58,679 bases of DNA. Source: Pseudomonadota bacterium. Lineage in GTDB: Bacteria; Pseudomonadota; Alphaproteobacteria; Rhizobiales; Stappiaceae. The translations under genes were made by a program, and so were the position numbers. The notes under the pieces were generated by a model that saw only the letters and a program-made list of their open reading frames with translations, did not search any database and was not told where the DNA came from. Within the stretch, counting starts at the first letter, position 1; each line of letters opens with the position of its first letter. Of the stretch, positions 50,807-54,453 are shown in pieces. Location of the stretch: assembly GCA_039818365.1 (NCBI GenBank), contig JBCBUA010000005.1:1-58679 (forward strand), in the 5' to 3' direction.

Positions 50807-53800
50807 TCAGATGAAATCCGTCTCCGGGATTGCCATGGCGACTGCGCTGGTACCATGGCCCTGGGCAACAGCGAGATCAGCTGCGGCTGCATCGCTTTCG
50901 GCAGAGCCGAAGGCAGACAGGGTTTCGGCAGCGCCGGCCAGGAGGCCAAGGATATCGCCGGACGCAAGCGTATCCGTTCCGACCGAGACCTCCTCCACAG
51001 CAAAGCTGAAGTCATCCATCGGATCCGTCTCGTTGTAGATCGCTTTCAGATCGAACTGGAAACTGTCCGCACCCTGAACAACCTTGAGCCATTCAACTGC
51101 AGTGGCTTCCTCGTCCATGCCGTGGACGGTCGCCACGGTCTTGTCGTCGAGCTGGATCTCAAGCGCATCATCCGCCTTGACGAAATGGAAGGCATCCTCG
51201 TCCATCGCCTGCAGCGAGAAACTGCGCAGCTCGATGACATCGTTGCCATCAGGCGTTTGCGAAATCTCGTCAAGCGCCGGAAGTTCGACGCCGAAACTCT
51301 CCAGGAAGGATTTCACACCATCGGTCGCACGCTCGGCAATGGTCGCCTCGCCATCCGCCCAGATCGTGTAGGTGTCGTCACCGGCTTCACCGGAAAGGAA
51401 GCCCTCTCCTGCAAGCACATCCGCACCGATGCCGCCCATGACCACATTCGCCTTGACTTCGTAGGCTCCCAGTCCGGTGGCAAGATCAAAGTCCGGGCTG
51501 AAATCCGTCACCGCATCGATCAGCTTGCCGATCGGTTCGGTAATGCCTTCGATGGCGTTCACCGTCGCCGTCAGCGCCGAACGGAAGTCCTGGACCCATG
51601 GAATATCTGTCAGGGCGTCATGGATGACGATCTTGGTGAAGTCCATGACATCCATGATGATGTCCGACCCCGAACCGCCGGCGAAGAAGTTGCCGAAGCT
51701 GAAGGAAATTTCGGCAAGATCCTCGATGCTGGCATCCTCTTTGTCCATGGCAAGGAGACTTGCCATTTCGCCGAGACCATTTGCCGTCAGGACCAGGTCG
51801 TCGCCGGCTCCGCCCATGACGAGCGAATTGGCATCTGCAAGGCTCAGCAGAACATCATTGTCTGCACCGCCATGTGCAATGGCGCCGGGTCCTTCTGCCA
51901 CCATCAGGTCAGCGCCCTCTCCGCCGAGCTGCGCCGTGACAACGATCTCTGAAGGCAGGGCACCGGTCACAAGACCGCCCTTGCGGTTGCCGTCGCTGTC
52001 CGTGTCGGTATTGAGCGACACGGACGCCGCCGCATCTTTACCGAGGGAAAGTCCAAGCATCACGTCCGTCCCGGCACCGCCATACTGGAACGAGGCTGCA
52101 GCCTTGTATTGAGGCGCGACCACCTTCGCCGCGGCGACCATCACGTCCGAGCCATCGCCGCCGAACTGGGCAACGCCCTGGCCGCCACCGATCAGGATGT
52201 CGTTGCCTGCGTCGGCATATTGCACGACGCCGATGCCGCCGCCGACCATGACGTCATTGCCCTGGCCCATTACCTGCGTGGTCATGCCGCCGGCGCCGAA
52301 GGCATAGTCCTTTCCGGATCCGCCGAACTGAAGGTTGTTGGTGCCGCCGCCGACCATGACGTTGGTGCCGCCGCCTTCGGTTTCGAAATATTCATCGAAG
52401 TTCTCGATGACCTCGGCGAACTTGCCGTCGTCAAAACCGAGATCAGAGGGAATTGCGCTCCACAGGTGATCGCCGAACTGGATGTTGTTCGCACCGCCGG
52501 CCATCAGGAAATCATCGTCAGATCCGCCGATCTGGATGTTCGCGCCGCCAACCGCAAAAAGCTTGTCCTTGCCGCTGCCGCCGTGCTGCAGGTTGACCCC
52601 CGCAACACCGACGAGCACGTCTTCGCCGTCGCCGCCGAACTGGCCGACATTCACGCCGAGCCCGTACAACTGGTCATCACCGTCATCGCCGAACTGGAGA
52701 TTGCCGTTGCCGGCCGCCGCCAGAAGGTCTTCACCATCGCCACCAAACTGGATGTTGGCAACGCCGAGCGCTTTCAGCTTGTCGTCGCCGGAACCGCCAA
52801 ACATAGTGTTGACGCCGCCAAGTGCGACCAGTTCGTCATCACCGGCGTCACCATGCACCACGTTGACGCCGCCGATTGCCTCGATCGTGTCGTCGCCTGC
52901 ACCGCCGTTCAGAACGTTGACACCGCCGGCTGCCTTGATCATGTCGTCGCCGTCACCGCCGAACGCTGTCGTCGCACCGGCCTTGGCTTCGATGAAGTCG
53001 TTGCCGTTGTCGCCGTGAATGACGTTGTTCACGCCATAGCCGTACATTTTGTCGTTGCCGTCGCCGCCACGCATGACGTTCGACGCACCGTAGCCGGTCA
53101 TGTCGTCGTCGCCGGTTCCGCCATGCATGACATTGGAAGCGCCGCGGCCTTCCATGGTGTCATTGCCGCTGTCGCCATACAACACATTGGACAGCCCATG
53201 GCCTTCCATGTGGTCGTTGCCGGTGCCGCCGCGCATGACATTGGACGCGCCATAGCCGTACAATTTGTCATTGCCGCTATCGCCGTTCATGACGTTCGAA
53301 GCACCATAGCCTTTCAGCGTGTCGTGGTCGTCGCCGCCATACATCACGTTGGAGGCGCCGCGGCCTTCGAGCGTGTCGTTGCCGTCCTCGCCGCGCATGA
53401 CATTGGAAGCACCGTAACCTTTCAGCGTGTCGCTGCCGGTTCCGCCATACATGTTGTTGGACGCGCCATAGCCATAGAGACTGTCGTTGCCGGAGCCCCC
53501 TTTCATCTTGTTGGAAGCACCGTAGCCATAAAGCTTGTCACTGTAGCTGCCGCCGTCCATGTCGTTGTAGGCGCCGTAGCCCTTGAGCGTGTCGTAGCCG
53601 CTGTCGCCCCGCATGACGTTTTTCGCGCCATAGCCGTAGATCGTGTCGTTGCCGGTACCGCCGCGCATCTCGTTGTAGGCGCCATAGCCGTAGAGCTTGT
53701 CGGTTCCGCTGTCGCCCCACAGGTAGTTCGTGGCGCCATAGGCCTTGACCGTATCGTTTCCGGATCCGCCGCGCAGGTAGTTGAGCGGAGCCCAGCCGCC

Positions 53801-53947
53801 GACGAAATCATTGCCTGATCCGCCGCGCAGATCGTTCTTGATCGCCGAATAGCCATAGAGCTTGTCGTTGCCCGACCCGCCGTCCTTGTTGCCGTAAAGG
53901 CCGTAGAGCTTGTAGGTCTGGTGAATGCTTTTGGATGAAGAGCCCAT
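50807..53947 (-). CDS. RTX-type Ca-binding repeat protein (1046 aa) with 18-residue repeats
   Basis: Dozens of GGxGxD/GDxGxD units with 18-aa period (e.g. GGTGNDTIYGYGAKNVMR); no signal peptide; acidic C-terminal region compatible with a T1SS signal. Confidence 0.9.
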   Translation of the reverse strand: MGSSSKSIHQTYKLYGLYGNKDGGSGNDKLYGYSAIKNDLRGGSGNDFVGGWAPLNYLRGGSGNDTVKAYGATNYLWGDSGTDKLYGYGAYNEMRGGTGNDTIYGYGAKNVMRGDSGYDTLKGYGAYNDMDGGSYSDKLYGYGASNKMKGGSGNDSLYGYGASNNMYGGTGSDTLKGYGASNVMRGEDGNDTLEGRGASNVMYGGDDHDTLKGYGASNVMNGDSGNDKLYGYGASNVMRGGTGNDHMEGHGLSNVLYGDSGNDTMEGRGASNVMHGGTGDDDMTGYGASNVMRGGDGNDKMYGYGVNNVIHGDNGNDFIEAKAGATTAFGGDGDDMIKAAGGVNVLNGGAGDDTIEAIGGVNVVHGDAGDDELVALGGVNTMFGGSGDDKLKALGVANIQFGGDGEDLLAAAGNGNLQFGDDGDDQLYGLGVNVGQFGGDGEDVLVGVAGVNLQHGGSGKDKLFAVGGANIQIGGSDDDFLMAGGANNIQFGDHLWSAIPSDLGFDDGKFAEVIENFDEYFETEGGGTNVMVGGGTNNLQFGGSGKDYAFGAGGMTTQVMGQGNDVMVGGGIGVVQYADAGNDILIGGGQGVAQFGGDGSDVMVAAAKVVAPQYKAAASFQYGGAGTDVMLGLSLGKDAAASVSLNTDTDSDGNRKGGLVTGALPSEIVVTAQLGGEGADLMVAEGPGAIAHGGADNDVLLSLADANSLVMGGAGDDLVLTANGLGEMASLLAMDKEDASIEDLAEISFSFGNFFAGGSGSDIIMDVMDFTKIVIHDALTDIPWVQDFRSALTATVNAIEGITEPIGKLIDAVTDFSPDFDLATGLGAYEVKANVVMGGIGADVLAGEGFLSGEAGDDTYTIWADGEATIAERATDGVKSFLESFGVELPALDEISQTPDGNDVIELRSFSLQAMDEDAFHFVKADDALEIQLDDKTVATVHGMDEEATAVEWLKVVQGADSFQFDLKAIYNETDPMDDFSFAVEEVSVGTDTLASGDILGLLAGAAETLSAFGSAESDAAAADLAVAQGHGTSAVAMAIPETDFI

Positions 53948-53982
53948 AATGAAAATCCTTTGTTAAATCTGGAAAAGTGGAA

Positions 53983-54453
53983 TTACGCCGCGTATGCGCG
54001 TGCTTTTACGGGGTGGCCGTTCTGGTCACGGCCCGGGTGCTGGACAATGCGCAGGACATGTCCATTTCCATCGCGGCGGACCGACCGCAAAGCACGGTCT
54101 GGGAAGACGGTCCGCTTGAGATCCCGGGCGGTCTGGAAACCGTCGCCGAAGGGTGCGATGAAATCGATGACGACCGGATTGGACCCGTTGTTCCACTGGT
54201 CCGGATCGGGAAGATGATCCCGGTGCAGAACAGCTTCTTCCGTTTCCGCGTCGAGCCAGGCCCAGGTCGCCAGCGCGACCGGCAGACCGCCGCGCCGCCA
54301 GATGCGCAGCTGGCCGAGCATCAGGGGTGGCAGGATAAGAGCACCAACCTCCGAGATGCTCCGATCCTTGTGCAGCGGGCTTTCGGCCATCAGCACGTGG
54401 GCTTCGCCGAGCATGGCGAAGGTGGTCTGTTTGTCGATCTGAATGCCGGTCAT
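53983..54453 (-). CDS. RTX toxin-activating lysine acyltransferase (HlyC/CyaC/RtxC family)
   Basis: LMAESPLHK (conserved Ser/His), ILPPLMLGQ, ATWAWL, WNNG...VIDFIAPFG. Confidence 0.9.
   Translation of the reverse strand: MTGIQIDKQTTFAMLGEAHVLMAESPLHKDRSISEVGALILPPLMLGQLRIWRRGGLPVALATWAWLDAETEEAVLHRDHLPDPDQWNNGSNPVVIDFIAPFGDGFQTARDLKRTVFPDRALRSVRRDGNGHVLRIVQHPGRDQNGHPVKARAYAA

Follow-up and report, generated by a model that had tools for sequence, protein, structure and literature searches.

What does an HlyC-family acyltransferase modify when the RTX protein encoded beside it is made largely of calcium-binding repeats? The question is raised by two genes in a stretch of 58,679 nucleotides, hereafter the window (positions 1 to 58,679 of contig JBCBUA010000005.1, assembly GCA_039818365.1, from a member of the Stappiaceae; its genome is called G000 below):

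53983-54453, minus strand: hlyC, HlyC-family acyltransferase (toxin-activating acyltransferase, TAAT) of 156 aa; PF02794
50807-53947, minus strand: RTX gene, 1046-aa beta-roll protein, predicted substrate of a type I secretion system (T1SS) and predicted acylation target

Sequence comparisons establish that hlyC and the RTX gene form a real, co-inherited module. Tentatively, and with a little less than even confidence, the RTX protein is read here as a lipid-tipped surface tether or adhesin that would be acylated at its N-terminal tip.

The two genes share the minus strand and are 35 bp apart, and a ribosome-binding site (AAGGA) precedes the RTX start. A previous reading of the window, made from the sequence alone, had already given these open reading frames (ORFs), their spacing and orientation, and repeats running almost from the start of the protein; all were recovered, the 18-residue repeats beginning at residue 23. 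A domain scan likewise found the flanking genes that it had named, encoding a SixA-like phosphatase and a DUF3179 protein, and no T1SS gene among the neighbours scanned. The label "orphan" is thus apt locally; it does not extend to the genome, where four HlyD-type genes above the TIGR01843 cut-off lie on other contigs, two of them adjoining large secreted-type genes of their own. The hlyC of the window is the only one in G000, and the named relatives, at 86-96% identity, are Roseibium records, which marks the window as Roseibium-like.

Conservation and distribution of the pair

A profile of the C-terminal half (C-half) of the RTX protein matched 18 of the 72 genomes of the genus Roseibium. The matches occupied 28 rows; one contig-end fragment was dropped and two rows represent one split gene, leaving 26 scorable copies. 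An hlyC match lies 1.4-2.4 kb upstream of the C-half match, on the same strand, in all 26, and the pairing proposed from the sequence alone is therefore conserved; these linkage counts leave out P0028-P0033 and P0040, which has to be set against the reading favoured here. The copies comprise 17 of the window type and 9 of a second paralogue (about 38% identity). Outside the genus, the pair recurs in four genomes (Sagittula, G960, G868 and G119). Those of G960 and G868 were found from the enzyme side, independently of the RTX protein, and in G119, which belongs to another order, three small genes lie between hlyC and the RTX gene. No T1SS gene was seen beside the pair at these loci, whose neighbours differ, and among the loci compared no conserved neighbour would suit an immunity gene.

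Three pairwise comparisons show that both genes are under purifying selection. The nonsynonymous rate (dN) was 0.03-0.09 for hlyC and, in the RTX gene, 0.02-0.03 over codons 1-100 and 0.09-0.13 over the last 160 codons, with synonymous rates (dS) of 0.6-1.6 in both genes. HlyC and RTX identities are correlated (Spearman 0.67 over 78 pairs); because the pairs are not independent, this correlation was not used as proof.

More distant relatives are known. On an Acaryochloris marina plasmid (L233:7922-13743), two tandem hlyC genes precede a gene for a 1365-aa roll of 18-residue repeats that starts Met-Gly; its N-terminal roll is 37% identical over 621 columns, its C-half is different and it carries a Pro/Leu-rich insert. 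No C-half match was found in the plasmids searched. Broad genome searches of low sensitivity, scoring only two or three candidates per genome, found the family in 2 of 401 genomes of the class, 1 of 401 of the order and 0 of 301 with query P0174, the last search missing three members known in its set. In Sagittula, the pair is directly preceded by a gene for a large RTX/cadherin-like adhesin (L049:3-7244). The RTX gene is split into two ORFs in two copies (L048:8001-12037 and G457:C35:197551-199399).

Architecture of the RTX protein

Pfam recognised in the RTX protein only PF00353, the Ca2+-binding GGxGxD repeats, in ten stretches, and Pfam and NCBIfam scans found no pore, protease or effector domain. 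Against NCBIfam NF033943 it scored 180 bits (cut-off 1000), the best stretch lying within the repeats. The protein has no Cys, no hydrophobic N-terminal stretch and no signal peptide. Its maximal KD19 is 1.2; KD19 is at most 1.66 in all 15 members examined, with no transmembrane-grade segment. GGxGxD motifs keep a regular period of 18 residues between residue 23 and about 490 (about 26 rungs); beyond that they are irregularly spaced as far as about residue 860. The following parts can be distinguished:

53885-53947, minus strand: N-terminal tip (residues 1-21), basic and Tyr-containing, with candidate acceptors Gly2 and Lys13
52478-53884, minus strand: regular 18-residue beta-roll of about 26 rungs; predicted local distance difference test (pLDDT) 81-96 over residues 21-490
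52385-52465, minus strand: helical insert 1 (residues 495-521), acidic and amphipathic, following a conserved QFGxxLxS motif
51926-52048, minus strand: variable insert 2 (residues about 634-674), a low-confidence hairpin here and a longer acidic segment in other members
51449-51649, minus strand: amphipathic acidic helical insert (residues 767-833), not transmembrane-grade, far longer in P0030
51035-51403, minus strand: C-terminal cap domain (residues 849-971), the best-conserved part of the C-half, with invariant or near-invariant columns in alignment A4
50807-50965, minus strand: C-terminal helices (from the model) and acidic-hydrophobic end (ETDFI), with similar ends across the family

A further insert interrupts the roll at residues about 725-752. 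Along its length the roll grades from a Tyr-rich (YGYG) zone through a Gly/Ala/Val zone to a QFG zone, and the number of rungs ranges from 23 to 34 among 13 members. Acidic and amphipathic (moment about 0.6), the inserts differ in length and sequence over 29 aligned rows and keep their position. The sequence-only reading had described a protein made mostly of repeats, without pore or effector domain. It was right about the missing domains and overlooked the four inserts and the non-repeat C-terminal part of about 200 aa.

An AlphaFold2 model built from a 12-row alignment (mean pLDDT 74.5, pTM 0.60) shows a beta-roll that runs unbroken from residue 10, with good confidence as far as about residue 490 and lower confidence up to about 870. 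Helices occupy 495-521, 725-733 and 767-813, the cap 849-971 and the terminal helices 995-1037. The model of the C-half is weak (pLDDT 60.6). Fold searches returned beta-solenoids only. The best Foldseek match was CyaA RTX751 (E=1.6e-5, TMq 0.13), and the best VIA-align score (Z 11.5, root-mean-square deviation (rmsd) 3.4, 150 residues aligned) was tied with CsgA, an ice-binding protein and MpIBP. The RTX protein is thus predicted to be a long calcium-bound beta-roll rod with helical inserts and a C-terminal cap. In the profile scans it scored far below the thresholds of the RTX cytolysin models. The Atlas clusters nearest to the cap carry PF06594, PF08339 or PF21735, which is a lead only. By analogy with the known features of T1SS signals, the acidic-hydrophobic end is likely to be a secretion signal.

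The HlyC-family enzyme

The window HlyC scores 101 bits against PF02794 (curated cut-off 25) and aligns with ApxC (4whn) at E=2.9e-16. In that alignment Ser25-x-x-His28 and Asp97 match the active site of ApxC, and the His/Asp dyad, the catalytic core of TAATs (PMC8510554), is intact. Asp97 is invariant in 25 aligned HlyC relatives. In a quick tree of 83 HlyC domains, the 14 HlyCs of the family group in a single clade (SH-aLRT 90), and the His is retained across the clade of the window enzyme. It is quite probable that the enzyme acylates the RTX protein.

Not every feature of the family fits an active enzyme. In the second Roseibium paralogue, Tyr occupies the catalytic His position (the Asp is kept), a point that weighs against the favoured reading. 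Moreover, the Asn of the AINVLP stretch of ApxC, which follows the first helix and is also found in E. coli HlyC, is replaced by Leu in the window enzyme. The homologue could then leave the RTX protein unacylated and be a chaperone or, like rtxC in some MARTX systems, a dispensable passenger; deletion of rtxC has little effect in Vibrio (PMC3034196). Such a role appears very improbable in view of the invariant Asp, the His kept in the window's clade, the strict co-inheritance and the low dN, and His-less CdiC and ApxC variants are partly active (PMC8510554).

The paralogous pair, present in nine Roseibium genomes, is exemplified by the hlyC genes at L024:7486-7968, L025:8344-8826 and L096:6432-6914. 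A separate HlyC clade without RTX partners (SH-aLRT 98) comprises L029, L030, L199 and L229, with a cupin/JmjC-like gene beside that of L030. At L009 and L012 (G007 and G002), in a prophage-like region, hlyC is flanked by genes for a long low-complexity protein and a glycine-zipper protein, and a GNAT-like gene lies upstream. An hlyC-like gene is also present in a Pelagibacter phage.

The probable site of acylation

A given Lys of the C-half is shared by 12 of the 19 aligned members at most, and each of the five Gly-Lys sites by no more than half of the aligned rows. A fatty-acylated roll, as first proposed from the sequence alone, stays the best reading of the protein; an internal Lys acceptor finds no support in the C-half, and the comparative signal lies at the N-terminal tip, which is the likely site of modification.

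At the tip, Gly2 is present in 12 of the 13 rows of alignment A5 (close members) and in 11 of 14 family or related proteins in a wider set. For comparison, G000 has Gly2 in 19 of the 470 long ORFs that follow a strong ribosome-binding site and in none of its eight other RTX ORFs. A PROSITE-style myristoylation motif is not kept beyond Gly2.

The other partners of hlyC bear on the same point. The Rhodobacteraceae hold 54 hlyC matches in 46 of 301 genomes, and the flanks of all 54 were read. The partners are 38 Hint_2 proteins, three members of the hlyC-RTX family, two giants with a MARTX N-terminus and three other large repeat proteins, the remaining eight hlyC genes having no clear secreted partner. 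Pfam confirmed the Hint_2 identity of 13 out of 13 partners scanned. These partners, of about 300 aa, are found at:

L104, L108, L109, L111, L113-L117, L119-L126, L128, L203-L207, L209-L212, L214-L218, L221-L224: Hint_2 proteins beside hlyC

Gly2 occurs in 33 of the 38 hlyC-adjacent Hint_2 proteins vs 2 of 55 non-adjacent ones, and Lys is absent before the Hint domain in 31 of 38 vs 18 of 55; since a single similarity network takes in 34 of the 38, the partners amount to roughly one family, and the Fisher p-value overstates the contrast. The controls were 60 of the 175 Hint matches in ten genomes, together with those within hlyC flanks, and Hint ORFs open at the 5' end were excluded (nine in one comparison). 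In the L203 array of seven Hint genes, the three that directly follow an hlyC start MG; the other four start MP or MA. Gly2 is also found in further hlyC partners (the MARTX-N-terminus proteins of L131 and L201, the giant RTX protein of L195 and a LamG giant with a GTG start at L133), in the Acaryochloris roll and in a Vibrio MARTX.

Because no Lys of the C-half is conserved and the Gly2 signal appears both in the family and in the Hint partners, the acceptor is likely to be the N-terminal amine, with Lys13 as its rival; that Gly2 rather than Lys13 carries the acyl chain is an even call. Several observations, beside the single network of Hint partners, weigh against Gly2. Lys13 is present in 13 of the 13 rows of A5. 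L129, P0028 and P0029 have Ser or Ala at residue 2, five of the 38 Hint partners start with Val, Thr or Pro, and start codons were assigned by rule. Lys occurs within the Hint domain and beyond it (best column 7 of 12). Large hlyC-linked proteins without Gly2 include L132, L196, L197, L200, L234, L027/L198 and a Proteus MARTX-like protein. Finally, the TAATs described in PMC8510554, PMC3034196 and PMC8339906 act on internal Lys.

The enzyme could accordingly be a conventional Lys acyltransferase acting in the first rung on Lys13 (or Lys21/Lys29), Gly2 being kept for N-terminal processing or stability; the rod would still be lipidated at its tip. Besides Lys13, Lys29 is shared by 12 of the 13 A5 rows, the basic Tyr-rich context resembles the CdiC site (PMC8510554), and the established chemistry of TAATs is on Lys. 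However, the position of Lys13 is not Lys in P0030, P0031, P0033, P0040 and P0187, Lys is common at the equivalent position of later rungs, and the Lys-free, Gly2-starting Hint partners would be left unexplained. We consider this alternative decidedly unlikely.

Returning to N-terminal Gly, a wider rule can be proposed with reserve, as possible though somewhat short of an even chance. A large alphaproteobacterial branch of HlyC enzymes would be cytoplasmic N-terminal Gly fatty-acyltransferases, comparable to N-myristoylation, that lipid-tag unrelated secreted proteins (the beta-roll rod, Hint proteins, MARTX-like giants) for membrane anchoring; such a rule may reveal the unmapped site of RtxC on MARTX.

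Among the giants, MARTX-N-terminus proteins lie beside hlyC in the Rhodobacteraceae at L131:5192-15568 (3458 aa), L132:569-9376 (2935 aa) and L201. L131 and L132 score about 500 bits against NF012221, below its cut-off, and no protease or effector Pfam match was found. A contig-end example of such a protein beside hlyC occurs in Roseibium.

Surface tether or toxin

Removal of the initiator Met is established for proteins with a small second residue, and in the proposed mechanism it would expose Gly2. The amine freed in this way would be fatty-acylated by the TAAT while the protein is still in the cytoplasm. Export of the RTX chain by an unlinked T1SS would begin at the C-terminus and end with the lipidated tip, and Ca2+ would fold the roll after export. 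The lipid, together with the adjoining basic Tyr-rich rungs, might hold this last-emerging end against an outer membrane, the roll serving as a spacer of variable length in a surface tether or adhesin. In a related manner, CdiC acylates Lys in a basic Tyr-rich segment and thereby promotes binding to lipopolysaccharide (PMC8510554). A second precedent is the palmitoylation of an N-terminal Gly by AatD (PMC7943197), described below.

A tether is favoured because the number of rungs varies as that of a spacer would, little constraint acts on the inserts, modules of a binding type are added in the long members, none of the 15 members examined has a transmembrane-grade segment, and no conserved immunity candidate was seen. 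The longer members, of 1785-2120 aa (Primorskyibacter, Acuticoccus), carry additional C-terminal modules, one of them with CBM_4_9. It weighs against a tether that the characterised TAAT substrates are toxins (PMC8339906, PMC8510554, PMC3034196).

This last point suggests that the acylated RTX protein might instead damage the membranes of eukaryotic neighbours such as algae or grazing protists. In this view the target membrane would be bound through the lipid and the Tyr-rich tip and penetrated by the acidic amphipathic inserts, possibly after acidification. The 18-residue repeats fit the MARTX C-repeat consensus (PMC3034196), and an effector-free MARTX still lyses cells (PMC4453568). The inserts, whose position is kept family-wide, are in most cases the most hydrophobic windows once their acids are neutralised, and a patchy spread, in 18 of 72 genomes, would suit a conflict system. 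Nevertheless, the protein has neither a pore domain nor the MARTX N-terminal repeat region, the latter being required for lysis (PMC4453568). The low KD19 values given above also argue against a toxin, and the inserts are poorly conserved in sequence and length, that of the Acaryochloris relative being Pro-rich. A toxin is regarded as plausible and a strong competitor of the tether, somewhat less probable than it and more probable than the alternatives discussed for the enzyme.

Comparison with known systems

The sequence-only reading had placed the protein outside both classical RTX cytolysins and MARTX, and the profile scores bear this out. With the cytolysins (HlyC/HlyA, ApxC/ApxI, CyaC/CyaA), the window system shares a TAAT gene directly upstream of an RTX gene for about 1000 aa, the His/Asp dyad, a Ca2+-binding beta-roll and a C-terminal cap, and its best structural matches are CyaA RTX blocks. 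It differs in that the repeats begin at residue 23, with no hydrophobic pore domain, no conserved Gly-Lys acylated segment and no linked hlyBD; in addition, E. coli HlyA starts Met-Pro and lacks Gly2.

With MARTX (RtxA/RtxC), it shares an adjacent TAAT and 18-residue repeats with GxxN, and a Vibrio MARTX starts Met-Gly. The MARTX C-repeat consensus is X(V/I)XXGXXNX(V/I)XXGDGXDX (PMC3034196); by inspection, the period, GxxN and GxGxD fit, the first hydrophobic position best in the middle rungs. In contrast, the window protein, at 1046 aa, is about a third of the 3212-aa MARTX minimum (PMC3034196), and its locus has no cysteine protease, effector domains, or rtxH or rtxBDE neighbours. The RTX protein matched neither NF012221 nor PF07634, which describe the MARTX N-terminal A/B repeat region. 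That region is required for translocation and lysis (PMC4453568), and its absence weakens the idea, also raised from the sequence alone, of a minimal MARTX-like translocon.

In class IV contact-dependent inhibition (CDI), too, a TAAT (CdiC) lipidates a filamentous protein (CdiA) in a basic Tyr-rich segment and so aids membrane binding. CdiA, however, is a two-partner-secreted filament with a C-terminal toxin, an immunity gene and an internal acylated Lys, none of which is seen here (PMC8510554). The glycine lipoproteins CexE/Aap resemble the RTX protein in a conserved N-terminal Gly followed by Ser/Gly, and they are N-acylated for membrane incorporation and surface display via a T1SS-like system (PMC7943197). 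Their enzyme AatD palmitoylates the N-terminal Gly for surface display; unlike the window enzyme, it is Lnt-like, unrelated to TAATs and periplasmic, acting after Sec export, whereas the window pairs a TAAT with a substrate that has no signal peptide and a predicted Gly acylation (PMC7943197).

T1SS adhesins and S-layers are likewise long beta-roll proteins of T1SS type. MpIBP, LapA and Caulobacter RsaA stay on the cell through their N-terminal end, and none of the three is known to have a cognate TAAT. Structural matches are weak (MpIBP: Z 10.9, rmsd 9.5, 257 aligned; RsaA: Z 5.6, rmsd 13.1, 272 aligned). No Ig-like extender or retention module of the LapA/MpIBP type was found in the RTX protein by Pfam scan or in the model; a lipid would here replace the protein anchor. 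Judged by sequence features, the hlyC-RTX unit fails the defining tests of RTX cytolysins, MARTX, LapA-type adhesins and Aat lipoproteins, and would work like a hybrid of these. A Rhizobium-type RTX bacteriocin is also named among RTX proteins (PMC3034196).

A literature search, most subscription papers lying outside its scope, found no description of the hlyC-RTX family, of hlyC-Hint pairs or of Gly acylation by a TAAT, and in the literature examined AatD is the sole example of enzymatic Gly acylation in bacteria (PMC7943197). With this pair, the range of TAATs reaches past pore-forming toxins and CdiA and takes in an RTX architecture of marine alphaproteobacteria that appears to be undescribed. 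Lipidation of the tip would make the exported rod a membrane-anchored tether, unlike a classical pore-forming toxin. N-terminal Gly acylation, if true, would be a new reaction for the HlyC family. T1SS substrates could then be anchored at the surface by a lipid in place of a retention domain, the many Rhodobacteraceae hlyC-Hint pairs would gain a function, and there would be a candidate explanation of what RtxC does to MARTX. As a tool, too, an enzyme of 156 aa able to lipidate a short N-terminal tag would be useful.

Neighbouring genes and regulation

The sixA, DUF3179 and flagellar genes near the pair were considered as parts of the module and rejected, because the neighbours differ among loci; in five of five genomes of the genus without the family, no hlyC-RTX pair lies behind sixA. 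Two intergenic features were noted:

54514-54533, no strand: palindromic box TGGGG-N6-CCCCA, 63 nt upstream of hlyC
50729-50750, no strand: G+C-rich hairpin between the convergent sixA and RTX genes, a possible terminator

The strand between sixA and the RTX gene (50680-50810, 131 nt) can form several stable hairpins (z = -4.9); a scan for T-run terminators did not call that at 50729-50750. A sigma-70 scan gave nothing above chance. One RNA run, in which 6% of the sequence words were present, yielded pieces of little length and depth on hlyC and, on the RTX gene, cross-matches caused by the repeats.

The palindromic box is kept in eight aligned upstream regions, one with a mismatch, and recurs in G119, 134 nt ahead of the RTX gene; no such box was found upstream of the paralogue pair or of the pairs of G960 and G868. 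In L044-L046 the pair adjoins genes for a LuxR-type response regulator and a sensor kinase, and in G868 it adjoins a gene for a 44% homologue of the regulator. In G000, the 66% orthologue of the regulator is on contig C72, next to two of the genome's five strict copies of the box. These associations make the box a likely candidate binding site of a LuxR/NarL-type response regulator, and we infer control of the pair by a regulator of the C72 type. On C72 (L243:248-12994), the two boxes flank a cluster encoding the LuxR-type regulator, a sensor kinase, an SH3 protein, a vWA/YfbK protein and an operon of an AAA ATPase and DUF6638. Possibly, this cluster and the hlyC-RTX pair belong to a shared regulon.

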